Source of the DNA: Eledone cirrhosa
Lineage: Eukaryota
Length of the DNA stretch: 64,000 nt
Reading direction: 5' to 3'
NCBI GenBank assembly: GCA_964016885.1
Contig: OZ024754.1
Span: 32,488,001 to 32,552,000 of the forward strand
The notes beneath the pieces are model-generated. The model did not search any database. It saw only the letters and a list, made by a program, of their open reading frames with translations, and had not been told where the DNA came from. A program made the translations under genes and the position numbers. Shown in pieces: positions 1,949-56,436 of this stretch; positions within the stretch are counted from its first letter, which is position 1; the number at the start of each line of letters is the position of its first letter.

Positions 1949-2041
1949 CAGAGCTCAAGCCGTTTCGACGGCTATTTCTGGACTCCAGAAATAGGCGTCG
2001 AAACGGCTTGAGCTCTGCCGTCGGGGTCAAACATTTTCCTA
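1949..2041 (+). mobile_element. Family A fold-back element carrying the 3' half of a hammerhead motif
   Basis: Palindrome 1949-2017; GAAA(2000)-cggc ttgagctct gccg-TC-ggggtc; homologous to 11739, 50170 and 53457. Confidence 0.75.
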
Positions 2042-3057
2042 TATACATATATATAAATGAAAAGTATAGAAATTGTTGTAGCGAGAAGCTAACAGTATTC
2101 CATAATATATAAGTGACTATAGCGTCAAAATGGGAAAATAGTTAACATAAGATATGGGAAAAATAATTCAAACTCAATTCAAAAAGAATCAGGATATAGA
2201 TTTATCCAACAGAATTTAGAGAAATCCAGGGAAAAATCAATAGAGCCTTAACTCATGATAAAACAAAGTCTAAAGTACTCATCCTTCAATTTGGGACAAC
2301 TTCAAACGCTCTGTATAGTCTTGAAAAGACTATTTCACGAAAACTTTCAGTGGGGATGGTCACGGTTGGATTTCGTTCATCAGCAGAGCTCAACATGGTA
2401 ACCAAGGTCTCACTGATTAATATGCCAAAAAGGGAATTTAAAAGCAAGCTAGTTTAACTTCATGCGTGATTATGAAAATAAAACGCACATGTGGACAAAC
2501 AGGGCTGGTGACGTCAGAATGAGACGAATGTTTGTTTACATGAAACAACAGTCAAAAACATTTCGAAAAAAACTCTACGATAAGGAGTTCAGCAAAAAAC
2601 AATATTATCGCGGTCTTTTTTTTTAAAAAAAAATACCGGGATTAGTCACAAATAATTTAAGCACTCTAGGAAATAAATCCGAGTATATATATATAAATGA
2701 AAAGTATATATATATATATATATATATGAATGAAGAATGGCGTGCTGCGTTGTTGCGAACATGAATATATGAATAAAAATAGACAAGGGTTAAAATGTCC
2801 TCTTCAGAAGTCTGCTGATTATCGTTGGTATTTCGACGTATTAAAGACTATATACTTAAAATCAGTGCGAACGATAACTCATATATATATATGTATATAT
2901 GTATATATTGAGCTTTTCTACTGAGAAACATAATCATCATAACATTTTATATATGTTATGATACCTTGAATTAGTGTATATATATATATGTGGGTGTGTG
3001 TGTGTGTATGTATGTATATTTATATATATATACATACACAAATATTATACATACACG

Positions 3058-3719: not shown

Positions 3720-3772
<53 letters not shown>

Positions 3773-6438: not shown

Positions 6439-6857
6439 AGAGAAACACAGTCGAATCCAAAGACGAAGATTGTCTTAATTATTTGTTGAGATCTTTGCTT
6501 TGACCGAAGAATATTAACTGTAAAATATATTCATAAGACATCATGAAACATCCCATAACATAGACGTTGTTATGGGATTGAAACAACGACTTCATAATTG
6601 CAAAGCAACTTTCTTAACGGTTATACTTGTCAAGCAAATGGTTAAAAAGAAAAAAAAAAGTCAATTGAATGCTAGAAAAATAAATGGTTGCAGGGAAATT
6701 GGCAATTTATTTCTTTATATGTGAAAAAGTACTTTAGCGTGGGGGGGGGGGGGGGGGGGGACTTATAGATATACTGATAGATATATATGGTGATAGAATG
6801 GTAGAAAATATATATAGAGGAAAAAAGAGGAGAAGAGAATGTGTGAGAGAGAGGTTA

Positions 6858-6912
<55 letters not shown>

Positions 6913-6917
6913 TTATC

Positions 6918-9524
6918 AGCAGGTGGTGGGTATCTCTAAAGAGAGAGATTAGAGTAGTCTCGATAGAATTTAGTAAGGTTCTAGCTGCGGATAGAAATAG
7001 GAAGGAAAGGGAGCTAATAGATAGAGTAGAAGAGGCAATTAGAAGCGGCGACGTGGCCAGAGTGCTAGCGTCGAGAACGGCTTTGAGCCAGTTTTTCGAC
7101 GCGAAGCACGAAGGCTGCGTTGTCCGAAGTAAAATACGTGCTCTAGGGAACGAGGGGACCAAAGCTGTTAGCTGGGCCCGCGTGACAGAGGCCAACAGTG
7201 GAACTAAATCCACTATCCGGTCTTTGCGAGACCTGGATGGACGGGCGATTCTTGAGCCTAAGCAGATGTGTGAGGCCTTTCAAAGGCACTTTGCCCGACT
7301 GTTCGGGAGGGGCGGGGAGCCGGTTGGGAATGTGGACTTCGGTCCATACCTCGACGGCCTGCCGCGTCTCTCGGACAGGGAGGCGAAGTCCTGCGAGGAG
7401 CCGATTTCGGCCGCTGAGATAGAGGACGTGCTGGGCCAATGCGGCAAACGCAAATCCCCGGGTCTCGATGGTCTTCCTTACGAATTATATCTAGCTATGC
7501 CGGACTTGTTCCCCGAGCTCCTCGAGGCGGTCTACTGCAACTGGCAACAGAACGGGAGAATTCCCTGTACTGTGACCAAGGGTGTAGTCACGCTAGTGAG
7601 GAAGGACGAGAACAAGGGGGACGAAATAAGTAACTTCAGGCCCATAACTCTGCTAAATACAGAGTTACAGATTTTGGCCAAGGTGCTAGCAAAGAGGTTG
7701 GCGCTTGTCGTGGGCAACCTGGTGGGAGATGCGCAGACATGCGCTATCCCGTCCAGGTCCATCCATGACAACCTCCACCTCATGCGATACATCATAGAGA
7801 GGGTTGGGAACGACCCCGGCTTTGGTGGGGCTCTGATCAACTTGGATCAATCTAAGGCGTTCGATAGGGTCGACCATGGTTACCTGGATGCGGTGCTAGC
7901 GGCGGCAGGCTTCGGACCCGTTTTCAGGGGCTGGATCACTGCTATGCACAGCAGCCGCATCTGCTCTAGGGTCAAGGTGAACGGCTACCTCTCGGAGCCG
8001 TTCAAAATCGCGCGGTCCATCCGACAAGGGTGCCCTCTCTCCTCCCTTCTGTATGTGTTGACTCTCGAGCCACTACTGCGGAAGTTGGAGTTGTTGCAGG
8101 GCATCCCTTTGGAACCGGGATTGCGGAAAGCGGTGTCGGCCTACGCCGATGACGTGACAGTAATGGTGTCGACGGCCTCCGAAATCGAGGCGGTCGGCAC
8201 CTTACTGGAGGAGTACGAAAGGCTCACAGGGGCTAAGCTGAACCGGGACAAGTCGATCGGTTTGCAACTCGGCACGTGGAGGGGCAGACCGATGCCCTCC
8301 GATGGCGTCGTCGGACGCTGGACGGAGGGCCCGGTGAAGTTGCTCGGGGTCTGGTTCGGACCGGACCTCCAGGTGGAGAAAAACTGGGCGGAGGTTACGA
8401 ACAGGGTGTTTGCACTGACCCAGAAGTGGGCCAGTTGCAAACTATCCCTGAAAGGTCGGGCGGAGGTGGCGAACACCTATATAGCGTCCGTCATCTACTA
8501 CCGCCTGACCGTAGTGCCCTGCCCAAGGGAAACCCTCACCAAGATGGAGCGCGCGCTCTTCGAATTCCTTTGGAAGAGGCGGGCTCCTATGGTGAGGAGA
8601 TCCATCTGCTGTCAACACCCTTCGAAAGGAGGGCTGGGGATGCCGTGGCTAATGATGCGTAAACACGCATTAAGGCTACGGCACCTCTACGTATTCCTCA
8701 CCGGTCAACCGGTGTGGGCCTCGTTTGTGAGACGAACCTTTCCCAGACTCGTCTCACTCACCGAGCTGCAATCCTGGGTCAAGCAAAGACCGAGAAAACT
8801 GGGCGCCTGGCACACTGAGTGTGCCCAGGCGCTCACCGCCCTCTGGCAGGCGGATCCGGTTATCAGTGGAGACTCCACCGCAACATTCTATAGAGGGCTG
8901 GTACGCAGCAGGTGCGACGACGCCCTCGGAGAAGCCCTAGACATGGAGGAGGACGAACTGGCCAGCCTGTTCGGTAGGACATTCAGCCCAGGACCTATGG
9001 ACAACTTCCAGAAGTCCCTGGCCTGGCAGTGCTACCGAGGGGCTCTACCCGTTCGAGAAAAGCTCTACAGACACGGGCGCCCGGGTAGGGACCCCGCCAA
9101 AAAGATCTGTCCCAGATGCGTGTGCGACGAGGAAACCGTTGCACACGCATTGGTACACTGCTCGGGCGTAGCCGATCTGTGGGGCTATGTCGAACAACTG
9201 CTGTCAAGGGTGGGACCGATCCGGTTGACCACCGAGTCTATTGTAATAATCAAGCCGCCTCCCCCCTTCAAAGATGAAGGAGAGGCGGTGTTTCTGTGCG
9301 TAATAGCCATGGTGAAAGAAGTTGTATGGTGGACGCGTCTGAAAGGACTGAGGTCAGGCACCTTTCTCTCTGGCCAACAACTGGTCCGTTTCTTCCGATA
9401 TCATTTCGGAAGAAGGATCAGGATGGAGAGAGAGGTGCTCCACCCCAGTCGTTTTTATGAAAGGTGGGTGAAAGTGGCGAGAATGGCCCGTGTGAATGGG
9501 CCTTCTCTTTACATAAGCCTGTAG
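6918..9524 (+). CDS. ORF2 fragment: reverse transcriptase plus C-terminal CCHC finger; APE endonuclease lost by 5' truncation
   Basis: Motifs KSPGLDGLP, NFRPITLLN, LDQSKAFDRVDH, RQGCPLS, YADD, GGLG, CPRCVCDEETVAHALVHC; no stops over ~868 codons. The predicted start at 6798 is read-through of flank and microsatellite. Confidence 0.92.
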   Translation, partial: SRWWVSLKREIRVVSIEFSKVLAADRNRKERELIDRVEEAIRSGDVARVLASRTALSQFFDAKHEGCVVRSKIRALGNEGTKAVSWARVTEANSGTKSTIRSLRDLDGRAILEPKQMCEAFQRHFARLFGRGGEPVGNVDFGPYLDGLPRLSDREAKSCEEPISAAEIEDVLGQCGKRKSPGLDGLPYELYLAMPDLFPELLEAVYCNWQQNGRIPCTVTKGVVTLVRKDENKGDEISNFRPITLLNTELQILAKVLAKRLALVVGNLVGDAQTCAIPSRSIHDNLHLMRYIIERVGNDPGFGGALINLDQSKAFDRVDHGYLDAVLAAAGFGPVFRGWITAMHSSRICSRVKVNGYLSEPFKIARSIRQGCPLSSLLYVLTLEPLLRKLELLQGIPLEPGLRKAVSAYADDVTVMVSTASEIEAVGTLLEEYERLTGAKLNRDKSIGLQLGTWRGRPMPSDGVVGRWTEGPVKLLGVWFGPDLQVEKNWAEVTNRVFALTQKWASCKLSLKGRAEVANTYIASVIYYRLTVVPCPRETLTKMERALFEFLWKRRAPMVRRSICCQHPSKGGLGMPWLMMRKHALRLRHLYVFLTGQPVWASFVRRTFPRLVSLTELQSWVKQRPRKLGAWHTECAQALTALWQADPVISGDSTATFYRGLVRSRCDDALGEALDMEEDELASLFGRTFSPGPMDNFQKSLAWQCYRGALPVREKLYRHGRPGRDPAKKICPRCVCDEETVAHALVHCSGVADLWGYVEQLLSRVGPIRLTTESIVIIKPPPPFKDEGEAVFLCVIAMVKEVVWWTRLKGLRSGTFLSGQQLVRFFRYHFGRRIRMEREVLHPSRFYERWVKVARMARVNGPSLYISL

Positions 9525-11738: not shown

Positions 11739-11740
<2 letters not shown>

Positions 11741-11930
11741 GGAAAAAGTATGACTCCGACGGCAGAGCTCAAGCCGTTTCGACGGCTATTTCTGGACTGA
11801 AATAGCCGTCGAAACGGCTTGAGCTCTGCCGTCGGGGTCATACTTTTTCCTATTTCCCACTCTACTACCCTAAGTATTGAGTACTCAGGTCCGTTATGGT
11901 CCATCTGGTTCCTTACCACATTTCTTTTGT

Positions 11931-11934
<4 letters not shown>
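11739..11934 (+). mobile_element. Family A fold-back element (114-bp palindrome plus ~80-bp tail)
   Basis: Near-perfect inverted repeat 11739-11852; hammerhead 3' half with GAAA 11811 and GUC 11831-11833; flanked by (TA)n and (CA)n. Confidence 0.85.
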
Positions 11935-13058: not shown

Positions 13059-16000
13059 AGAGACTGACTGACTACACTGTTATACTATAGACTGACTACA
13101 CCGTGTTATATTATAGACTGACTACACCGTGTTATACTATAGACTGACTACACTGTGTTATACTATAGAGAGACTACACCGTGTTATACTATAGACTGAC
13201 TACACCGTGCTATAATATAGACTGACTACACCGTGTTATACTATAGACTGACTACACCGTGTTATACTATAGACTGACTACACCGTGCTATAATATAGAG
13301 TGACTACACCGTGTTATACTATAGACTGAGTGCAATGTTATACTATAGACTGACTACACTGTGTTATACTATAGACTGAGTGCACTGTTATACTATAGGC
13401 TGACTAAAATGTGTTATATTATAGACTGACTACATTGTGTTATACTATAGACTGACTACACTGTGTTATACTATAGACTGACTACACTGTGTTATATTAT
13501 AGACTGACTACACTGTGTTATACTATAGACTGACTACACTGTGTTATACTATAGACTGACTACACCGTGTTATACTATAGACTGACTACACTGTGTTATA
13601 CTATAGAGTGACTACACCGTGTTATACTATAGACTGACTACACCGTGTTATACTATAGACTGACTACACCGTGTTATACTATAGACTGACTACACCGTGC
13701 TATAATATAGACTGACTACACCGTGTTATACTATAGACTGACTACACCGTGTTATACTATAGACTGACTACACTGTGGTATACTATAGACTGACTACACC
13801 GTGCTATAATATAGACTGACTACACTGTGTTATACTATAGACTGAGTGCACTGTTATACTATAGAGTGACTAAACTGTGTTATATTATAGACTGACTATA
13901 CTGTGTTATACTATAGACTGTCTACACTGTGTTATACTACAGACTGACTACACTGTGTTATATTATAGACTGACTACACTGTGTTATATTATAGACTGAC
14001 TATACTGTGTTATACTATAGACTGTCTACACTGTGTTATACTACAGACTGACTACACTGTGTTATACTATAGACTGACTACACTGTGTTATATTATAGAC
14101 TGACTACACTGTGTTATACTATAGACTGTCTACACTGTGTTATATTATAGACTGACTACACTGTGTTATATTATAGACTGACTATACTGTGTTATATTAT
14201 AGACTGACTACACTGTGTTATATTATAGACTGACTACACTGGGTTATACTATAGACTGTCTACACTGTGTTATACTATAGACTGTCTACACTGTGTTATA
14301 CTATAGACTGTCTACACTGTGTTATACTATATACTGACTACACTGTGTTATACTATAGACTGACTACACTGTGTTATACTATATACTGACTACACTGTGT
14401 TATACTATAGAGTGACTACACTGTGTTATACTATAGACTGACTATACTGTGTTATACTATAGACTGACTACACTGTGTTATACTATAGACTGACTACACT
14501 GTGTTATATTATAGACTTACTATACTGTGTTATACTATAGACTGACTACACTGTGTTATACTATAGACTGACTACACTGTGTTATACTATAGACTGTCTA
14601 CACTGTGTTATACTACAGACTGACTACACTGTGTTATACTATAGACTGACTACACTGTGGTATACTATAGACTGACTACACTGTGTTATACTATAGACTG
14701 ACTACACTGTGTTATACTATAGACTGACTACACTGTGTTATACTATAGACTGACTATACTGTGTTATACTATAGACTGACTACACTGTGTTATACTATAG
14801 ACTGACTACACTGTTATACTATAGACTGACTACACTGTGGTATACTATAGACTGACTACACTGTTATAATATAGACTGACTACACTGTGGTATACTATAG
14901 ACTGACTACACTGTGTTATATTATAGACTGACTACACTGTGTTATATTATAGACTGACTACACTGTGGTATTCTATAGACTGACCACACTGTGTTATACA
15001 ATATACTGACTACACTGTGTTATACTATAGACTGACTACACTGTGTTATACTATAGACTGTCTACACTGGGTTTTACAATAGACTGACTACACTGTGTTA
15101 TACTATAGACTGACTACACTGTGTTATACTATAGACTGACTACACTGTGTTATACTATAGACTGACTACACTGTGGTATACTATAGACTGACTACACTGT
15201 GTTATATTATAGACTGACTACACTGTGTTATATTATAGACTGACTACACTGTGTTATATTATAGACTGACTACACTGTGTTATACTGTAGACTGACTACA
15301 CTGTGGTATACTATAGACTGACTACACTGTGTTATATTACAGACTGACTACACTGTGTTATATTATAGACTGACTACACTGTGTTATACTATAGACTGTC
15401 TACACTGTGGTATACTATAGATTGACTATACTGTGTTATAGTATAGACTGACTACACTGTGTTATACTATAGACTGACTACACTGTGTTATACTATAGAC
15501 TGACTACACTGTGTTATACTATAGACTGACTACACTGTGTTATACTATAGACTGACTACACTGTGTTATATTATAGACTGACTACACTGTGTTATACTAT
15601 AGACTGACTACACTGTGTTATACTATAGACTGACTACACTGTGCTATATTATAGACTGACTACACTGTGGTATACTATAGACTGTCTACACTGTGTTATA
15701 CTATAGACTGACTACACTGTGTTATACTATTGAGTGACTACACTGTTATACTATAGACTGACTACACTGTGTTATACTATAGACAGACTACTCTGTGTTA
15801 TACTATAGACTGACTACAGTGTGTTATACTATAGACTTACTACACTGTGTTATATTATAGACTGTCTACACTGTGTTATACTATAGACTGACTACACTGT
15901 GGTATACTATAGGCTGACTACACTGTGTTATACTATAGAGTGACTACACTGTTATACTATAGATGGACTACACTGTGTTATACTATAGACTGACTACACT

Positions 16001-17330
16001 GTGTTATACTATAGAGTGACTACACTGTTATACTATAGACTGACTACACTGTGTTATACTGTAGACTGACTACACTGTGTTATACTATACACTGACTACA
16101 CTGTGTTATACTATAGAGTGACTACACTGTCATACTATAGACCGACTACACTGTGTTATACTATAGACTGACTACACTGTGTTATACTATATACTGCCTA
16201 CACTGTGTTATACTATAGACTGACTACACTGTGTTATACTATAGACTGACTACACTGTGGTATACTATAGACTGATTACACTGTGTTATACTATAGACTG
16301 ACTACATTGTGTTATACTATAGACTGACTACACTGTGTTATATTATAGACTGACTACACTGTGTTATACTATAGACTGACTACACTGTGTTATACTATAG
16401 ACTGACTACACTGTGTTATATTATAGACTGACTACACTGTGTTATACTATAGACTGACTACACTGTGTTATACTATAGACTGTCTACACTGTGTTATACT
16501 ATAGACTGACTACACTGTTATACTATAGACTGACTACACTGTTATACTATAGACTGACTACACTGTGTTATACTATAGACTGACTACACTGTGTTATACT
16601 ATACACTGACTACACTGTGTTATACTATATACTGACTACACTGTGTTATACTATAGACTGACTACACTGTGTTATACTATAGACTGACTACACTGTGTTA
16701 TACTATAGACTGACTACACTGTGTTATACTATAGACTGACTACATTGTGTTATACTATAGACTGACGACACTGTGTTATATTATAGACTGACTACACTGT
16801 GGTATACTATAGACTGACTACACTGTGTTATACTATAGACTGTCTACACTGTGTTATACTATAGACTGACTCACTGTTATACTATAGACTGACTACACTG
16901 TGTTATACTATAGACTGACTACACTGTGTTATACTATAGACTGTCTACACTGTGTTATACTATAGGCTGACTACACTGTGTTATACTATAGACTGACTAC
17001 ACTGTGTTATACTATAGACTGTCTACACTGGGTTATACTATCGACTGACTACACTGTGTTATACTATAGAGTGACTACACTGTGTTATATTATAGACTGA
17101 CAACGCTATGTTATACTATAGACTGACTACACTGTGGTATACTATAGACTGACTACGCTGTGTTATACTATAGACTGACTACACTGTGTTATACTATAGA
17201 CAGACTACGCTATGTTATACTATATACTGACTACACTGTGTTATACTATCGACTGACTACACTGTGGTATACTATAGACTGACTACGCTATGTTATACTA
17301 TTTACTGACTACACTGTGTTATACTATAGC
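13057..17330. repeat. 26-bp tandem satellite (atagactgactacactgtgttatact), ~160-165 units
   Basis: Continuous head-to-tail units with point variants and occasional 24-bp variants; count estimated as length/26. Confidence 0.97.
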
Positions 17331-19214: not shown

Positions 19215-19258
19215 AGTCACTGAGGAGGTCACAGATTATGTGACGAAAGAGCTTTGAC
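19215..19258 (+). ncRNA. Type-I hammerhead motif, family B, diverged copy
   Basis: gtca CUGAGGA g gtcaca-gatta-tgtgac GAAA gagc UU tgac; upstream atggtgtaggacagaacaaaggaga matches 51128-51152. Confidence 0.7.
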
Positions 19259-19649: not shown

Positions 19650-20287
19650 AGACACCATGCTTTGCAGCATAGAGTTATGGCCCTTTACGTCCTGAGTTCA
19701 AATCCGCCGAGGTTTACTTTGCTTTTCATCCTTACGGAGTCGATAAAATAAAGTACCAGTAATGCACTGATGTCGATCTAATCGACTTTCAACATTCTTC
19801 TTCTTCTTCTTCTTCTTCTTCTTCTTCTTCTTCTTCTTCTTCTTCTTCTTCTTCTTCCCCACAGCCACATCCCCCAAAGTGTTGGTCTTGTGCCTAAATC
19901 AGAAACCATTGTGGTTTGGCAGTATCGGTAGAGGGTCTGACGCCATGCTTTGCAGCATAGGAGTTATGGCCCTTTAGGTTCTGAGTTGAAATCCCGCCAG
20001 GTTAACTTTGCCTTACGGGGTCAATAAAATAAAGCACCAGTAATGCACTGGGGGTAATTGCTGGCCTTGTGCCAAAAGTAGAAACACTATTATTATTATT
20101 ATTATGGATTAGCAGTATCGGTAGAGCTTCAGACAACATGCTTTGCGGCATAGAGTTACAGCCCTTCACGTCCTGAGTTCAAATCCGCTGAGGTTTACTT
20201 AGCTTTTCATCCTTACAGAGTCGATAAAATAAAGTACCAGTAATGCACTGGGTAATTTGCTGGCCTTGTGCCTAAAGTGGAAACAAT
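19650..20287 (+). mobile_element. Three head-to-tail tRNA-derived SINEs with a Meta-like central domain
   Basis: A-box tggcagtatcggtag, B-box gagttcaaatcc, central gcctttcatccttacggggtcgataaaataaagtaccag, tail ggccttgtgcctaaagtagaaac. Confidence 0.88.
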
Positions 20288-20343
20288 TATTATTATTTTT
20301 ATTATAATCCTCCTCCTCCTCCTCCTCCTCCTCCTCCTCCTCC

Positions 20344-28102: not shown

Positions 28103-28580
28103 AGGCGGTGGATTGGCAGTATCGGTAGAGGGTCGGACGCCATGCTTTGCAGAGTTACGGCCCTTTATGGTTTGAGGGCGGTGGATTGGCAGTACCAGTA
28201 GAGAGTCGGACGCCATGCTTTCCAGCATAGTTACGTCCCTTTACGGTCTGAGTTCAAATCCCGCCGAGGTTAACTTTGCCTTTCATCCTTACGGGGTCGA
28301 TAAAATAAAGTACCAGTAATGTACTGGGTAATTGCTGGCCTTGTGCCAAAAGTAGAAACAATTATTTCTTGTCTTAAGTATTGGTAGGGCGTCGAACAAC
28401 ATGGTTTGCAACATAGAGTTACGCCCCTTTATGATCTAAGTTCAAATCCCGCCAAGGTTAACTTTGCCTTTCATCCTTACGGGGTTGATAAAAGAAAGTA
28501 CCAGTCACGCACTGGGGTCGATTTAATCGACTTCCCCTTCTCCAAAATTGTTGGCATTGTGCCTGTGTAAGAAATCATTA
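28103..28580 (+). mobile_element. SINE cluster: one partial and two near-full copies
   Basis: Family consensus motifs repeated head-to-tail. Confidence 0.88.
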
Positions 28581-29067: not shown

Positions 29068-29448
29068 GGCGGTGGATTGGCAGTATCGGTAGAGGGTCGG
29101 ACGCCATGCTTTGCAGAGTTACGGCCCTTTATGGTTTGAGTTCAAATCCCGCCGAGGTTAACTTTGCCTTTTATCCTTACGGAGTCGATAAAATAAAGTA
29201 CCAGTAATGCACTGGGATAATTGCTGGCCTTGTGCCAAAAGTAGAAACAATTATTTACTCGGTGGATTGGCAGTATCGGTAGAGGATCGGATGCCATGCT
29301 TTACAGCATAGAGTTACGGTCCTTTACGGCCTGGGTTCAAATCCCGCCGAGGTTAACTTTGCCTTTCATCCTTACGGAGTCGATAAAATAAAGTACCAGT
29401 AATGCACTGGGATAATTGCTGGCCTTGTGTCAAAAGTAGAAACAATTA
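29068..29448 (+). mobile_element. Two tandem SINE copies
   Basis: Family consensus motifs. Confidence 0.88.
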
Positions 29449-29658
29449 TTTACTCCAGACTTTTGAAAATGTGGGTCGTAATCTTCCCACAAAAAGAGTG
29501 ACGAAATGATTTTAGGAAGTCGCGGAGAAATTTCTATACGATAAATAATTTGGTAGCTGTTATGCACATTTCTTTCTCAACATTTTCAACATTTTCAACA
29601 TTGAAAACAAGACAAAATATCTTCCAAGCTTGAAAAACATTGAAACTGCCTTGTGACC

Positions 29659-34370: not shown

Positions 34371-34978
34371 GTCAGGTCACCAGTTGGTGCTACTGGTAAC
34401 ATGTATCCCAGTACAACCTGTCTCATGGTTGGGTCGTTGGCGACTAAACTGGCAACCCCACCAAGGTTTCTTGGTGAGGAGGGTGACTTTGGACATCCTG
34501 CAGGACTAAAAACAAAACCTGTCAAAGGGCAAAGGAGCTCTTAAGAGTCAATGGCCATCCAAAATCACCGGGAGAGATGACCCCTTAGCCTTTGTCAAGG
34601 CAGAATTCTAGGAGAAGGAAAACTCTGAAATAACACCTGCAACCTTGATGGTATCCAATGATGTTGACTTGTTCTTCTTTTTGGTAAATATCATCTTGGT
34701 TAAGAGAGTGGGACTGGCTTTGTGCAGTGCCTTTGCTCACTATAAAAGCTTCACGGCACAGGCATTGCTTTATATCTGGAAATCTCTCTGCACTTGTCGT
34801 CACATGGTACCATGGGCCCAGCACTATGTGTCAATAATTGTCACAAGTGTAGTGTTTGCACCAGAGTTTTCAAGTCGCTGGCTGGACTAAGAAGTCACAC
34901 TCGTACAGCACATCGGTAGGGGTTCTCCTACATGGATATAAAGTAGTGGCCGTACTCGAAAACGAGTTGGCAGCCACC
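34371..34978 (+). mobile_element. Full-length (TATG)n-associated non-coding retroelement (~610 bp)
   Basis: Starts gtcaggtcacc, ends ctcgaaaacgagttggcagccacc; (TATG)n on both sides; four other copies in the window. Confidence 0.9.
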
Positions 34979-37400: not shown

Positions 37401-37722
37401 CACACACACACACACACACACAGACCCACACACATACGAGAATAGGTTGAAAAGTTCATAGGTAGACTATGAAAGAGTGATGCAATGCTGTGAAATTTTC
37501 AGGCATTAATTTCAAATATTCTTATTAATAAGAGCATTGTTTATTTCCAGGGACTATCATTTGGTCATTCCATGAGAGTATCTTGGTCAACCTATGAACG
37601 TTTCAACCAACCTTAGTATATGTATAAAAAGATGGATTTCATCGAAACCAGTAATATTTTATATATTTTATATACTTTATAAAAGTCCTTTTTAAATGAG
37701 AAATTGTTCTCCTTTTTTCAAT

Positions 37723-38108
37723 AATTGTTTCTACTTTTGGCACAAGGCCAGCAATTAACCAGTGCATTACTGGTATTTTATTTTATCGACCCCGTAAGGA
37801 TGAAAGGCAAAGCTAACCTCGGCGGTATTTGAACTCAGAACGTTATGGGCCGTAACTCTATGCTGCAAAGCATGTTGTCCGACGCTCTACCGATACTGCC
37901 AATCCACTGTCCATTTAAATAATAATTGTTTCTACTATAGGCACAAGGCCAGCAAATACTCAGTACATTACTGGTACTTTATTTTATCGACCCCGTAAGG
38001 ATGAAAGGCGAAGTTAACCTCGACGGGATTTGAACTCAGAATGGCAAGGGCCGTAACTCTATGCGTCACAGCATGGTGTCCGACGCTCTACCGATACTGC
38101 CAATCCAC
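37723..38108 (-). mobile_element. Two tandem SINE copies
   Basis: Reverse complement of the family consensus. Confidence 0.88.
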
Positions 38109-38212
38109 CAATAATGTCACTTTGATACTTTGATGACTCAAAGAAGAAAAAAGAAAAATAGATTATTTAAATATATTTCCTATAACCTTTTTATAGAACC
38201 TTACCCCCTTTT

Positions 38213-41642: not shown

Positions 41643-43585
41643 GCGGTGGTGGATTGGTAGAGTCGTTAGAGAGTCAAACAAAATATTTTGCGGCGTTTAA
41701 TTACGACCATTTACGTTCTGAGTTCAAATCCCACGAGGTCAGTTTTACCTTTCATCCTTCCGGGGTCGATAAATTAAAGTATCAGTCTTGGGGCTGATAT
41801 AATCAACTTTTTCCCTTCCCCTAAATTTCTGACCTTGTGCCAATATTAAAGATTTTGTCATTGGATACATATGTGCCTTATTTAATTATTTCTACTTTTG
41901 GCACAAGGCCAGCAATTAACCAGTGAATTACTGGTACTTTATTTTATCGACTCCGTAAGGATGAAAGGCAAAGTTAACATCGGCGGGATTTGAACTCAGA
42001 CCGTAAAGGAACGTAACTCTGTGCTGCAAAGCATGGCGTCCGACCCTCTACCGATACTGCCAATCCACCACCTGTGCCTTATTTAATGGTAATATACCAT
42101 CGTGTTTTAACTTCAGAAATTGTGGTTGCTGACACTACCAATCCAACGCCCTAATAGTGGTTCCTAATATAGGCACAAGGCCAGCAATTTTGGGGGAGGC
42201 GAAAGTCGATTAAATCGAACCCCACTGCATTACTGGTACCTTATTTTATCGACTCCTTAAGGATGAAAAGCAAAGATAACCTCGGCTTCTGGAATAATGA
42301 TCACAAGGTGACAAATTGGCCGAGTCACTAGAACGTCGGTTAGAATGCTTTACGGCATTTGTTTCGACTGTCTACTCTCGATTTAATCGACTTTCCCCTC
42401 CCCCAAAATTGCTGACCATGTGCCTATATAAGAAACCATTATTAGGGCATGGATTGGCAGGATCGGTAGAAGGTCGGACGCCATGCTTTCCAGCATAGTT
42501 ACGTCCCTTTACGATCTGAGTTCAAATCCCGCCGAGGTTGACTTTGCCTTTCATCCTTACGGGGTCGATAAAATAAAGTACCAGTAATGCACTGGGTAAT
42601 TGCTGGCCTTGTGCCTAAAGTAGAAACAATTATTAGGGCATTGGATTGACAATATCGGTAGAGGGTCGGACGCCATGCTTTGACGCATAGAGTTACGGCC
42701 CTTTATGATCTAAGTTCAAATCCCGCCAAGGTTAACTTTGCTTTTCATCCTTACGGGGTCTCTGGAAGAAATCTGTTTTGTTCAGACCTGGAGAAGGATG
42801 GGCTCTGCCAGGCTTAAAATGCCCTAGAAACGCTATATGTCACTACGGAGCCACGGGACCATGCATGCAATAATTGTTTCTACTTTAGGCACAAGGCCAG
42901 CAAATTACCAGTGCATTACTGGTACTTTATTTTATCGACCCCGTAAGGATGAAAGGCAAAGTCAACGCATGAAATAATGATCACATTTATTTGCCACAAG
43001 GGGGTACTACAAGGACAGGTTATAAAGAGCATTGGTATGGATGGGTTGGCTGAGTCGGTAGAGTATCGGGAAAATGTGTTAGCAGTATTTATTGTGGATT
43101 TTTAACCCTTTAGCATTTATATTACTCTATATTTACTATTGTATTTTCACAGTAAAGACTTTATCTCACATAATATCTCACATAGTATCTCACATAATAT
43201 CGAATCTATGAGATTTTTATATTATTTATTTTGAGAACTATACCTTAACATCAGTATGAGCAGTCAGTTTAAACAGAAAGAGGTTAGAGAATTTTAGCCG
43301 GTTATGGCTGGTTTAAATGCTAAAGGGTTAAGATCTGAGTTCAAATCACACCGAGGTTAGCTTTGACTTTCATCTTTACGTGGCCAATAGAAGACTGTAC
43401 CAGCAACACATTGGGGTCCATTTAACTGACTTTCCTCTGCCCCCAAATTGTTGACCTTGGCCTAAATCAGAAACCAATATTGTTGTTGTTGTTTAGGGGG
43501 GGTGTATTGGTAGAATTGGTAGAGTGCTGGACAACATGCTTTGGGGGTATAGAGTTACGGCTGTTTACATTATGAGTTCAAATAT
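41643..43585. mobile_element. Dense cluster of about nine SINE copies or fragments in both orientations
   Basis: Copies near 41643+, 41885-, 42158-, 42317+, 42449+, 42642+, 42871-, 43043+, 43497+. Confidence 0.85.
43106..43327. mobile_element. piggyBac-type MITE inserted in a SINE
   Basis: TTAA duplications at 43102-43105 and 43328-43331; 14-bp TIRs ccctttagcattta/taaatgctaaaggg. Confidence 0.88.
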
Positions 43586-46865: not shown

Positions 46866-46869
<4 letters not shown>

Positions 46870-47137
46870 GTTTCTACTTTTGGCACAAGGCCAGCAATTA
46901 CCCAGTGTATTACTGGTACTTTATTTTATCGACCCCGTAAGGATGAAAGGCAAAGTCAACCTCGGCGGGATTTGAACTCAGATCGTAAAGGGACGTAACT
47001 ATGCTGGAAAGCATGGCGTCCGACCCTCTACCGATACTGCCAATCCACCGCCCTTTATATATATAATTGTTTCTACTTTAGGCACAAGGCCAGCAATTAC
47101 CCAGAGTGCATTACTGGTACTTTATTTTATCGACCCC
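46866..47137 (-). mobile_element. One full and one truncated SINE
   Basis: Reverse complement of the family consensus. Confidence 0.88.
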
Positions 47138-47267
47138 ATATAATGGTAGATAGATCGAGATATAAGTATAGAAAGATATTCGATATAGATATATATAGAG
47201 ATATATTTCTTTATTTGCCAATTTAGATAGAAGGATAGAAGGATAGATAGGTTAGATAGATAGATAT

Positions 47268-49415: not shown

Positions 49416-49629
49416 CTCGAGGGCGGCTGACGGGGCTAGAAGCTGCTAAATGTTCGGCCGCCCTCATGTCTCTGATTTTCAGCCCCATGGATTTTGTCTA
49501 TTATATTCCTTTGTAAAATTTCGAATACCTGATGATGTCACCGGATTCATACTGAACCCAGTCACTGAAATGATCATAGTATAATAAACCTTTTAATGAA
49601 GAAGTACACCAGTCCAGCCTCCTGTTATT

Positions 49630-49637: not shown

Positions 49638-49688
<51 letters not shown>

Positions 49689-49691
<3 letters not shown>

Positions 49692-50114
49692 AATATCTTT
49701 AAGTCGTTTGGAAGCCTCGACAATGCAAATGGGTAAATGTCCGGGTAACAAGATCCGGTGGTGGAGAGAGAGATGTAAGTGGGTGTACGTTGAGATGCGT
49801 GGTGTGTAAAGATGTGTAAATGTGTAGAAGAAAGAAGGGAAGAGTATAAAGGATAAAATAAAAATAACAACACAAGAGAGAGTTACCTTGGGAGGGACTA
49901 TTAAATCTCTCCCAAGGTAACTCTCTCTTGTGTTGTTATTTTTATTTTATCCTTTATACTCTTCCCTTCTTTCTTCTACACATTTACACATCTTTACACA
50001 CCACGCATCTCAACGTACACCCACTTACATCTCTCTCTCCACCACCGGATCTTGTTACCCGGAGATTTACCCATTTGCATTGTCGAGGCTTCCAAACGAC
50101 TTAAAGATATTTAC
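49689..50114. repeat. Near-perfect inverted repeat with ~206-bp arms and ~14-nt spacer
   Basis: Mirror ORFs 49625-49873 (-) and 49930-50172 (+) are nearly identical; one mismatch seen. Confidence 0.93.
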
Positions 50115-50169
50115 TTATTATTCCACAATGCTTCAAGCAAACTTCAATACTCTCTTATATATATATATA

Positions 50170-50361
50170 TAACGAAGGAAATGTGGCAAGGAACCAGATG
50201 GACCATAACGCACCAAAGTACTCGATACTTAGGGTAGTAGAGTTGGTAATAGAAATAAGTAGGACTCTGACGGCTGAGCTCAAGCCGTTTCGACGGCTAT
50301 TTCTGAGTCCAGAATTAGCCGTCGAAACGGCTTGAGCTCAGCCGTCGTGGTCCTACTTGTT

Positions 50362-50365
<4 letters not shown>
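50170..50365 (-). mobile_element. Family A fold-back element, reverse orientation
   Basis: Palindrome ~50249-50365 plus a tail homologous to 11853-11934. Confidence 0.85.
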
Positions 50366-50447
<82 letters not shown>

Positions 50448-50593: not shown

Positions 50594-50646
50594 AAGTTTC
50601 AGAAGATCCCATTAAGGGTGAAAGCAGCGATTCTTTGCTTAAACTT
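50594..50646 (+). ncRNA. Hammerhead-like motif with variant core CAGAAGA (family D)
   Basis: aagttt CAGAAGA tccc-attaa-gggt GAAA gca...tgc UU aaactt; all three stems pair; second copy on minus at 51653-51703. Confidence 0.6.
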
Positions 50647-50752
50647 TAATCTGTTATTTTAATAAATATTTGCTCTACGGTTCTTATATATTTGATATAT
50701 ATTTATCCTTATCGAGCCCTCTTTGGATTTTATTCTTCAAATTTATTATTAT

Positions 50753-50863
<111 letters not shown>

Positions 50864-51017
50864 TGTTATACTTTGGGAGGGTCATGTTGCCAATAAGAAA
50901 CACACGCACCAGTTGCTTTCACTTCAATTTATTATATATTTATAAATTTACAAATTTATAAATTTATAAATTTCTGGTTGGTTGGTTGGTTCCACAACCA
51001 GATAGTTGTATATATAT

Positions 51018-51062
51018 AGTCATAGTCCTTTCGTCACACACTCTGTGACCTCTTCAGTGACT
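51018..51062 (-). ncRNA. Type-I hammerhead motif, family B, mirror copy
   Basis: Reverse complement of 51180-51224. Confidence 0.75.
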
Positions 51063-51179
51063 GGGGATTCCTTTCTTTGTCTCCTACGCCATTTTGTTTC
51101 TGTGTGTGTCACACACACAGAAACAAAATGGCGTAGGACAGAACAAAGGAGAGGCACGGAGACAAAGAAAGGAATCCCC

Positions 51180-51224
51180 AGTCACTGAAGAGGTCACAGA
51201 GTGTGTGACGAAAGGACTATGACT
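51180..51224 (+). ncRNA. Type-I hammerhead motif, family B
   Basis: agtca CUGAAGA g gtcaca-gagtg-tgtgac GAAA ggac UA tgact. Confidence 0.78.
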
Positions 51225-51436
51225 ATATATAAACAACTATCTGGTTGTGGAACCAACCAACCAACCAGAAATTTATAAATTTATAAATTTGTAAATTTAT
51301 AAATATATAATAAATTGAAGTGAAAGCAACTGGTGCGTGTGTTTCTTATTGGCAACATGACCCTCCCAAAGTATAACAATATTGGTTTCAACACACGATT
51401 TCAGATAAAGAATCTTGCTAAACAAATTCAGAAACG

Positions 51437-51522
<86 letters not shown>

Positions 51523-51652
51523 ATATATATATATATATATATAGTAATAATAATAAAATTGAAGACTAAAATCCAAAGAGGGCTCGATAAGGAAAATATA
51601 TATCAAATATATAAGAACCGTAGAGCAAATATTTATTAAAATAACAGATTAA

Positions 51653-51703
51653 AGTTTAAGCAAAGAATCGCTGCTTTCACCCTTAACGGGATCTTCTGAA
51701 ACT
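51653..51703 (-). ncRNA. Hammerhead-like motif, family D, second copy
   Basis: agttt CAGAAGA tccc-gttaa-gggt GAAA gca...tgc UU aaact. Confidence 0.55.
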
Positions 51704-53456: not shown

Positions 53457-53774
53457 ATATGAAAAGATTCAGGACGGCTGAGTTCCGGTCGTTTCGACAG
53501 CTAGATCCGAACTAAGCTACCAGTATGTCGAAACGACCGGAGCTCAGCCATTGGGGTCCTGAATCTTTTCATATTACCCAATCTACTACCCCAAATATCG
53601 AGCACTCTGGTGCGTTATGGTCCACCTGGCATCTTACCACACCCTCTTTGTTATATATATATATATATGGGAGAGTGTTGAAGTTTGCTAGAAGCATTGT
53701 GGAATAATAAAATTGGTCGCTTTGGAAGCCGGATAACAGAATCAGGTGTTAATGAGAGAGAGAGAGAACGAGAG

Positions 53775-53915: not shown

Positions 53916-54467
53916 GATTTAATTGTCCCTATATTTCGGATTTCGTATCCATCAACTGGGGATTTTCCGAAGGGAAAAAGCTTTTTGCCGGAGAGGGACA
54001 TATATATACATTTATATCAATTGACAACCAAAAGGTATGCGTTTCAACTTTAATATTAATACATAATAGTAAAGCCTCCCCAGGGCATTACTCCGGGGCT
54101 TAGATGACGCGAGTCCCAAACAAATACAAGAATCTTAGTCAAATCAGTAAACAAATTGAAGAGGGTTTGTATAGAAATAAACAAAAAAGTTGCTTATTTG
54201 TGCTAAATAGGCCGGGTTTTTTCCAGCAACAAGAAATGAGGTTTTTTTGAAAAGATTTTTGAAAAGGAAAAATGTTTTTTTTTTCCCGGAGAGACACATG
54301 CAAAGTAATTGATTAACTAGTCCTGGGCCTTTTTGGCAACAAGCGATTGGTAAGAAACCGGTATCATACCCAATTTATTCACCTCCTATATAGTATATAT
54401 AAAAAAATTAGGACCCCACGGCTGAGCTCTTGCCGTTTGCACACACACACACACACACAAGTATAGG

Positions 54468-54670
54468 GTAGAAGATGCTGAAGGTTCGGTCGCCCTCATG
54501 TCTCTGATTTTTCAGCCCCATGGTTGTTGTCTATTGTATTCCTATGTTATATTTCAAATACCTGATGATGTCACCGGATTCATACTGAACCCGGTCATTG
54601 AAATGATCATAGTATAATAAACCTTTCAAGGAAGAAGTACACCAGTCCAGCCTCCTGTTATTTTTATAAT
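54468..54670 (+). mobile_element. Family C element, second copy
   Basis: High similarity to 49436-49637. Confidence 0.82.
54558..54615 (+). ncRNA. Minimal type-I hammerhead ribozyme, family C
   Basis: atac CUGAUGA(54562) ...accgg-attca-tac-tgaa-cccggt... GAAA(54600) ugauca UA gtat. Confidence 0.85.
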
Positions 54671-54945
54671 ATATATATATATATATAATTGGGGAGGGTC
54701 ATAATGTTACAATATTGCCAGAAATAATAATAAAACACACTCACTGTTTGGTTTGGATTGGTTTTCGCTTCTGTATATTCTATATCCCTATAGTTAATTT
54801 AGCTGGGAATTAATGATTATCATTGATTGACCAACGGTTAATATATATATATATAAATATACTCATATTACCCACTCTACTACCCTAGGTATTGAGTACT
54901 TTGGTGCGTTATGGTGCACCTGATTTCCTTACCACTTTTCCTTCG

Positions 54946-54998
<53 letters not shown>

Positions 54999-55069
54999 TG
55001 GTCACACAACAGTTAGTTCACCATACCGAGAACAATTGTTTCACCTTAGCGGATCCTCAGCTCGTAATG

Positions 55070-55314: not shown

Positions 55315-55590
55315 AAGAAGAAGAACGTAAAGGTATGTAACTCAATACTGCAAAGAATGGTGTCCGACCCTCTACCGATTTTGCCAAACTACCTATAATA
55401 ATAACTGTTTCTATTTTTGGCACAAGAGCAGCAAATACCGAGTACATTACTGGTACTTTATTTTATCGAACCCGTAAGGATGAAGGGCAAAGTTAACCTC
55501 GGCGGGATTTGAACTTTAGATCATAAAGGGAGGTAACTCTATGCTTCAAAGCATGGTGTCTGACTCTCTACCGATACTGCCAATCCACCG
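55070..55590 (-). mobile_element. SINE cluster with a (GAA)n tract
   Basis: Reverse complement of the family consensus. Confidence 0.85.
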
Positions 55591-55820: not shown

Positions 55821-56436
55821 CAGGTCACCAGTTGGTCACCAGTTGGTGCTACTGGTAACATGTATCCCAGTACAACCTGTCTCATGGTCGGGTCGTTGGC
55901 GACTAAACTGGCAACCCCACCAAGGTTTCTTGGTGAGGACGGTGACTTTGGACATCCTGCAAGACTAAAAACAAGACCTGTCAAAGGGCAAAGGAGCTCT
56001 TAAGAGTCAATGGCCATCCAAAATCACCGGGAGAGATGACCCCTTAGCCTTTGTCAAGGCAGAATTGTAGGAGAAGGAAAACTCTGATATAACACCTGCA
56101 ACCCTGATGGTATCCAATGATGTTGACTTGTTCTTCTTTTTGGTAAATATCATCTTGGTTAAGAGAGTGGGACTGGCTTTGTGCAGTGCCTTTGCTCACT
56201 ATAAAAGCTTCACGGCACAGGCATTGCTTTATATCTGGAGATCTCTCTGCACTTGTCATCACATGTACCATGGGCCCAGCACTATATGTCAATAATGGTC
56301 ACAAGTGGGGTATTTGTGCCAGAGTTTTCAAGTCGCTGGCTGGACTAAAAACTCACACTCGTTCAGCGCATCGGTAGGGGTTCTCCTACATGGATTTAAA
56401 GTAGTGGCCGTACTCGAAAACGAGTTGGCAGCCACC
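55821..56436 (+). mobile_element. Full-length TATG element with an 11-bp duplication near the 5' end
   Basis: Matches 34371-34978; ggtcaccagtt occurs twice; (TATG)n flanks. Confidence 0.9.

Follow-up and report, generated by a model that had tools for sequence, protein, structure and literature searches.

The window, i.e., the whole stretch of 64,000 nucleotides analyzed here, contains four short palindromes, each composed of two arms arranged head-to-head. All element positions are counted from position 0, the first base 3' of a GUC site. In the main copy, a tailless arm on the minus strand that adjoins (TA)n (11739..11798, element +18 to -41) is followed by a tailed arm on the plus strand (11799..11933, element -35 to +99). 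The second copy (1949..2042) consists of a left arm on the minus strand (1949-1984, -6 to -41), the outer part of which is missing, and a tailless arm on the plus strand (1985-2042, -38 to +19). The third copy (50169..50366) is reversed, with the tailed arm on the minus strand (50169-50305, +99 to -37) and the tailless arm on the plus strand (50306-50366, -41 to +19). The fourth (53457..53654) belongs to a separate subfamily D, 74% identical, and has a tailless arm on the minus strand that reaches -54 (53457-53526) and a tailed arm on the plus strand that starts from -27 (53526-53654). A partial arm of the same family lies at 54403..54438 (minus strand) and a tail-only fragment, again in (TA)n, at 54863..54950 (plus strand). 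A 22-mer search of the window gave six matches, which form three inverted pairs (0.00 expected); the copy at 53457 had no match at up to three mismatches.

The inner part of the tailed arm of the main copy (11799..11837, plus strand) is assigned, from the predicted fold and covariation in long parents, to the 3' half of a type I hammerhead ribozyme. It comprises the 3' strand of stem II, GAAA (11811-11814), stem III, the GUC site and the GGGG strand of stem I, with cleavage predicted after 11833. The following 80 nt (11854..11933, plus strand) correspond to the "tail" of Penelope-like elements (PLEs), located between two inferred start sites of reverse transcription (PMC11167929). The GAAA, the stem III with its gagctc loop, the GUC site and the GGGG strand had all been pointed out by the first-pass annotation and are indeed present in the palindromes. 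The 5' half of the ribozyme core is absent in cis at all four copies and, as was also claimed, CUGANGA is missing, with no CTGANGA found within 250 nt of any of the four centres. The centre was said to be shared, with arms that start 0-3 nt differently; the latter holds for the copies at 11739 (-41/-35), 50249 (-41/-37) and 1949 (-41/-38), while the arms of the copy at 53457 end at -54 and -27 and do not share the centre. That the outer ends are fixed as well, at +19 and +99, and that the core of the parents reads UUGANAA had not been remarked upon.

Among the other repeats of the window is a LINE ORF2 with a 928-aa open frame containing RVT_1 and zf-RVT (6738-9524, plus strand), as well as a tandem array that spans about 4.3 kb and repeats every 26/52 nt or so (13066-17329). 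A repeat of about 190 nt, often a tandem dimer (19911-20291, 28177-28516, 29068-29455, 37720-38109, 41883-42072, 42407-42760, 46866-47140, and 55324-55589), is probably a SINE, as tRNA-like A and B boxes were recognized by eye. A two-part repeat of about 600 nt is found in (TATG)n at 33-624, 34371-34978, and 55834-56436, and in the first of these copies one half is inverted and the halves are in swapped order. A palindrome with 213-nt arms, 99% complementary, adjoins (TA)n at 49685-50118. Canonical CUGANGA...GAAA cores were observed in other repeat families (10 pattern matches against 1.4 expected), with hammerhead repeats at 50860-51382, 49434-49627, 54466-54660, 19220-19248, 55039-55060, 50595-50755, and 51544-51703. 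These are likely to be further PLE families, and the repeat at 50860-51382 is also head-to-head, with arms of 225 nt.

In the 3.0-Gb assembly, where all counts are exact pattern matches, the 39-nt arm core occurs 6,684 times, a pattern spanning arm and tail 1,492 times and a pattern for the missing 5' half of the ribozyme 550 times; short palindromes number in the thousands. Several subfamilies each have long parents bearing the ORF or the ribozyme. Upstream of the hammerhead the parents have about 740 nt of 3' UTR and, further upstream, an ORF, and one locus (L132) is a partial tandem with a unit of 3.13 kb. The single ORF, interrupted in every copy observed, has reverse transcriptase (RT) motifs followed by C-terminal motifs of a GIY-YIG-type endonuclease. 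Reading of the translations by eye revealed DKT (a modified DKG), a CxCX5C linker, and CxxC plus CxH around conserved E and N, with CCHH absent from the endonuclease. The published definition of the Hydra clade includes DKT, CxCX5C, CxxC/CxH, no CCHH and a unit generally <3 kb (PMC8557442), and because the motifs match this definition we assign the element to the Hydra clade of C-terminal EN+ PLEs. Insertion in (TA)n and a hammerhead in the pseudo-LTR agree with the clade, and the unit of 3.13 kb is slightly over the stated length. The N-terminal motif is RWR where the Hydra definition has RWK; of seven protein homologs (511-749 aa, 31-41% identical), P0002 (39% identical) has RWK at the aligned place. 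A Pfam search of the element proteins returned no RT or GIY-YIG match. Membership of the Neptune clade, characterized by a CX2-5CxxC linker and CCHH, was rejected on account of the CxCX5C linker and the absence of CCHH, and so was a non-LTR retrozyme, i.e., tandem repeats with whole hammerheads, as the short copies are dispersed, head-to-head and hold half a ribozyme. The palindromes are short head-to-head insertions in (TA)n of a Hydra-clade PLE with a unit of about 3.1 kb.

It had been proposed that the palindromes derive from a PLE hammerhead cut inside stem II and that long non-palindromic parents with CUGANGA should exist. Long parents with a whole hammerhead were found, which bears out the derivation, but their core is UUGANAA and not CUGANGA. 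This holds for 99 of the first 100 listed of the 550 matches (N being C in 61, A in 34, U in 3, and G in 1); the remaining one combines C3 with A8, and G8 is found in none. A parent with CUGANGA is therefore missing only in a literal sense, as U3-A8 is a described variant of the PLE hammerhead core (PMC4209133). The same core is present in subfamily D parents. A three-way junction was predicted for three of four subfamily A parents, with weak fold z-scores of -1.1 to -1.6. Across 12 parents from two subfamilies 93.4% of 228 cells were paired, and stem II shows three two-sided changes, all of which separate subfamily A from D and hence represent few events. On this modelling the long parents carry a whole type I hammerhead, for which self-cleavage is predicted. 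Rfam searches with one parent each from A and D gave no hammerhead match up to an E-value of 10, and for the window there was none among the 150 matches listed of 303.

The outer ends were scored at 70 consecutive arm-core loci on one contig (C1), two of which were dropped as second arms. Of the remaining 68 arms, 11 had no partner within 400 nt and three had unclassifiable partners, leaving 54 classifiable pairs. In 52 of these a tailless arm, from +19, is combined with a tailed arm, from +99 (p 2e-13 against free choice); the two exceptions have a tail at both ends and at neither end, respectively. The final base of the element ahead of (TA)n is +99, and BLAST values of 96 or 101-102 reflect cuts of the reference copies. 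Both +19, which is the 3' edge of the extended stem I, and +99 end in TAT adjoining (TA)n. Long copies mostly obey the same rule in either orientation, with exceptions including L146 and L378. The pairing matches the two start sites around the tail known from work in vitro, where a PLE protein nicks and extends both strands starting at two sites that bracket the tail (PMC11167929). Locus L051 ends at CCTAT just beyond the tail, and four others (L343, L358, L370, and L371, near 1592) end or jump a few bases 5' of the ORF ATG, possibly at a third priming site or RNA 3' end.

Most inner ends are found near -41, in hammerhead stem II. They fall at -25 to -48 in 60 of the 68 arm-anchored arms, 55 of them within -33 to -44, and in 62 of 70 tail-anchored arms; four arms scored as -48 were -41 by eye. 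Summed sequence depth rises about tenfold at the inner-end site and drops a few hundredfold past the tail; this depth derives from contigs of three runs from one sample, which are of unrecorded kind, may be the source of the assembly and say nothing on transcription. Arms of subfamily D end at the same position as those of A, and in the predicted folds the -41 site is paired in A and unpaired in D. A runs follow arm ends at -41 to -44 in L174 and L199 (near 1550) and in L017, which suggests slippage on a U run or terminal addition. The TTAG at this site was considered as a 3' splice site and rejected, as no foreign exon recurs beyond the arm ends; the conserved TTCTAA lies in the terminal loop of stem II in both subfamilies, which also counts against splicing.

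The centres differ between copies, 76 distinct ones being found among 107 tailless-tailed pairs, so each palindrome is built anew at insertion, in line with the independent events suggested previously. One 8-nt centre register, in mirror and mixed forms, accounts for 31 of the 107 pairs, and other centres hold short inserts, either templated or untemplated. The commonest centre joins a tailless arm to -41 with a tailed arm only to -35 (12/107). Arms within a copy are more alike than arms of different copies, as had been put forward as a check (3.5 against 5.1 differences per 54 positions, 116 pairs), and where one of six subfamily alleles occurs, the two arms share it in 76 cases and only one carries it in 19, whereas independence would give about 11 and 148. 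Together these indicate that both arms come from the same source, which does not discriminate between a folded-back cDNA and two cDNAs. Gene conversion between arms was rejected, as rare alleles are common to both arms only three times against 162 times on one arm.

The anatomy, the pairing of outer ends, the end positions, the parents and the jumps described below are observations; from these we infer two cDNAs, their run-off and their joining. On balance we hold it probable that each palindrome consists of two cDNAs, primed separately, whose synthesis ran off a single RNA at its 5' end, which lies near -41 and is likely a Pol II start. The element protein would nick both strands of the (TA)n target, and reverse transcription would start at +19, the 3' edge of the hammerhead, on one strand and at +99, the end of the tail, on the other. 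For nearly 90% of arms the template would begin near -41 in stem II, at a putative Pol II start at the initiator-like TTAGT(C/T) of the upstream pseudo-LTR, and run past the tail into the ORF leader. Both cDNAs would end near -41, gain a few untemplated bases and be connected by end-joining that involves microhomology, trimming and short templated inserts, for which polymerase theta is presumably a candidate where joining is of the microhomology type. The expected product would be the ribozyme's 3' half alone, in mirror image and with a single tail. Long copies would stem from a second class of template that reads through -41.

That the template of the short cDNAs can exceed +99 and behaves as ending near -41 follows from copies in which the tail continues into the leader. 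The tail-leader junction has 35 exact matches, all of which were retrieved. Seventeen extend at least 1.3 kb into the ORF and 14 of these reach the upstream ribozyme, where none of the 14 ends at -33 to -48; their ends range from -54 to beyond -1377. Eight of the long junction copies were extended and six proved continuous over a whole unit. In five other copies a jump leads from -42 or -40 to the leader or the start of the ORF, and five that start at -35 to -47 carry leader sequence, L370 and L373 being in both groups; three clean jumps include T(-42), a point against a start at -41. Another four of the 35 (L345, L355, L359, and L367, near 1440) have their start within the tail, some 30 nt past the cleavage site. 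L378 has a junction (3769-3772) between the -35 end of a tailed arm and position -787, from where the copy runs on across the entire ORF and beyond -41; it appears to be a short cDNA that jumped onto a long template. A simple model of an mRNA start predicts full-length copies starting at -41, of which there were none among the 17 long junction copies. A start at -41 would hence need an added step, i.e., loss of the downstream priming sites through ribozyme cleavage, or long copies made from read-through, circular or transferred templates.

The palindromes could alternatively be the work of a single cDNA which halts in stem II, folds back and copies itself, with the endonuclease trimming at +19 and later deletions giving the asymmetry. 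This is the origin of the mirror arm that was first suggested for this locus, and self-priming has also been proposed for inverted PLE ends elsewhere (PMC3846280). The subfamily alleles shared by the arms and the correlated arm lengths would fit, as would the short templated inserts, snap-back-like, at the centres of L020, L021, L023, and L071, and later deletion is possible in any individual palindrome. A fold-back copy cannot, however, hold sequence that lies 5' of its cDNA, and in 11 of 32 short tailless-anchored pairs the tailless arm extends at least 20 nt past the tailed arm. In L067 it reaches -562 against -47 and in L086 -330 against -49, so that up to about 500 nt are absent from tailed arms which end at the hot spot, and in L157, L159, and L163 inverted arms reach 1.5-2.7 kb beyond the tailed arm, the outer ends lying outside the loci. 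The commonest centre, with its longer tailless arm, points the same way, as do the two start sites demonstrated biochemically (PMC11167929). Moreover, tailless arms exist alone. There are 244 copies with -41 abutting (TA)n, of which 40 were fetched (33 from near-consecutive rows and seven chosen for G); 24 were tailless (-41 to +19), 13 tailed and three unclassified, and of the 24 a single one forms a genuine head-to-head pair. Any one asymmetric case might be put down to later deletion, though not easily the whole set, and the fold-back origin is already largely refuted; we consider it very improbable, although short snap-back synthesis at the centre may help to join cDNA ends. Less credible still, indeed hardly to be entertained, is a MITE or SINE origin, in which the short palindromes would propagate themselves and go back to one or a few palindromic masters. 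High copy number (the thousands of exact arm matches) and the single register that holds nearly a third of the pairs speak for it, but the diversity of centres, the several subfamilies each with its own ORF- or ribozyme-bearing parents, and the occurrence of the same end rule in long copies speak against it, as do unequal ends with a tail on one side only; any target-site duplication is unreadable in (TA)n. There is no single MITE ancestor, and as general origin the MITE is refuted; a minority of copies may come from transcribed short copies.

Given two cDNAs, their common end near -41 might be set by a long RNA on which they are halted by structure or by a bound protein, some particles being fully processive. 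The position of the end, within the inner hairpin of stem II or next to it, would fit, and in a few pairs one arm is long and the other ends at -47 to -49, as a halt would allow. An intrinsic stop at the fold of stem II, as claimed in the first-pass annotation, is not supported: none of the 14 long copies that get as far as the upstream ribozyme stops there, compared with 60 of all 68 arms, and the structural context differs between the subfamilies. In addition, long arms tend to have long partners, in 14 of 16 and 14 of 17 hand-scored pairs (28/33; loci with no visible partner, 11/30 and 13/30, were left out) against eight long arms among 68 overall, which independent stalling does not predict and fold-back does. 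We therefore regard stalling as clearly improbable; that subfamily D has the same end even though its predicted fold leaves the site unpaired counts for run-off. The main rival to a transcription start is a 5' end made by a nuclease cut in stem II, whether by small-RNA-guided slicing, hairpin processing or the element's own protein, from which two cDNAs run off. All the evidence for run-off fits it equally, and it agrees with the spread of ends from -41 to -44. The modal end, on the other hand, is the A of a pyrimidine-A-G-T-pyrimidine motif in both subfamilies (TTAGTC in A, TTAGTT in D), which we take to resemble the initiator consensus; the match comprises five bases in a region about 75% alike between the subfamilies. 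An extra G in a cDNA can be templated by the RNA cap. Beside A(-41) at (TA)n junctions we found G in 11 and C in 13 of 100 subfamily A copies (the first 100 of 244) and G in three and C in 16 of 64 subfamily D copies, compared to no G and three C at 64 control junctions (30 of 94 rows with a templated A were dropped). The excess of G or C (43/164 against 3/64, p 2e-4) suggests untemplated addition, which template jumping requires in R2 (PMC8857657). The cap-type G exceeds the control (0/64) in subfamily A (p 0.007) and not in D (p 0.24), extra C is unexplained by a cap, and after removal of partner-templatable bases the remaining 18 (6 G, 7 C, and 5 T) are uninformative on the cap, so the signature is weak, which leaves room for a nuclease. 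The G excess in subfamily A nevertheless tells against a cut, and so does the internal promoter in the pseudo-LTR of Penelope (PMC2377424), which together with the initiator-like motif favours transcription start at -41. Against such a start, that of Penelope in D. virilis lies 5' of an intron whose end maps to helix I, and thus outside the ribozyme (PMC2377424; PMC4209133). A nuclease cut seems to us unlikely, if less so than stalling.

The element shares with the Hydra clade the RT, the GIY-YIG-type endonuclease, DKT, CxCX5C, (TA)n insertion, a hammerhead in the pseudo-LTR, an inverted 5' copy and a tail (PMC8557442). It differs by the RWR motif, by its U3-A8 core with a long two-part stem II and in that the majority of copies are stubs, about 200 nt long, that contain half a ribozyme, and its tail of 80 nt contrasts with the 30-40 nt described for PLEs in that source. 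With Poseidon of Anolis (PAc), studied in vitro, it has in common that both target strands are cut and extended, that two internal starts bracket the tail, that targets are AT-rich and that insertion does not need ribozyme cleavage (PMC11167929). PAc belongs to another clade; here the tail precedes the ATG and the start sites end in TAT able to pair with (TA)n. The genomic copies here show one start site per strand and a fixed cDNA end; for PAc no start-site difference between strands was seen and the available part of the paper describes no fixed end (PMC11167929). Head-to-head PLEs of Adineta vaga likewise have an inverted pseudo-LTR, an optional tail on one repeat, junction palindromes and initiator-like motifs in the pseudo-LTR; they were explained by self-priming on an antisense template (PMC3846280), whereas the copies here favour two sense-templated cDNAs. 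Previously described U3-A8 hammerheads of PLEs are also of type I, located in the pseudo-LTR, with U3-A8 covariation, G10.1-C11.1, a palindromic loop 3 and motif pairs on opposite strands (PMC4209133); here stem III is 5 bp, stem II is long and most copies are devoid of the 5' half, so that they would be overlooked in a search for the core motif. Inverted pseudo-LTRs, tails, junction palindromes and self-priming (PMC3846280; PMC8557442), the ribozyme and the two priming sites (PMC11167929) are thus already published. The rule of one tailed and one tailless arm and the fixed run-off end inside the hammerhead were not found in the literature searched, which covered few subscription papers and others in part.

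In LTR retroelements, minus-strand strong-stop DNA is primed by a tRNA near the 5' end of the RNA, runs off at a fixed point and occasionally jumps. The short cDNAs here resemble it in being primed near the RNA 5' end, in their fixed run-off and in occasional jumps to another RNA position. They differ in that nicked chromosomal DNA, not a tRNA, primes at two sites and that the products integrate directly, and regular transfer to the 3' repeat is here only conjectured. It is tempting to speculate, tentatively and as a possibility we would not call probable, that PLEs use a strong-stop scheme of their own. The mRNA would start inside the hammerhead, so that its 5' half ribozyme could not cut itself; priming would take place at the tail sites, one per strand; most products would run off and give stubs, and a minority would transfer to the 3' repeat or use circular RNA to give long and tandem copies.

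The origin of the tandem and inverted structures of PLEs has been named an open question (PMC8557442), and published explanations differ between self-priming (PMC3846280) and two internal start sites (PMC11167929). Thousands of young copies provide a genomic read-out that favours two cDNAs, one per start site, and the run-off reading points to a single nucleotide where the template should begin. To annotation pipelines the stubs resemble MITEs or SINEs, and they escape hammerhead motif searches. If true, the strong-stop scheme would explain at once why PLEs have a tail, inverted 5' ends and partial tandems and why stubs are in excess.
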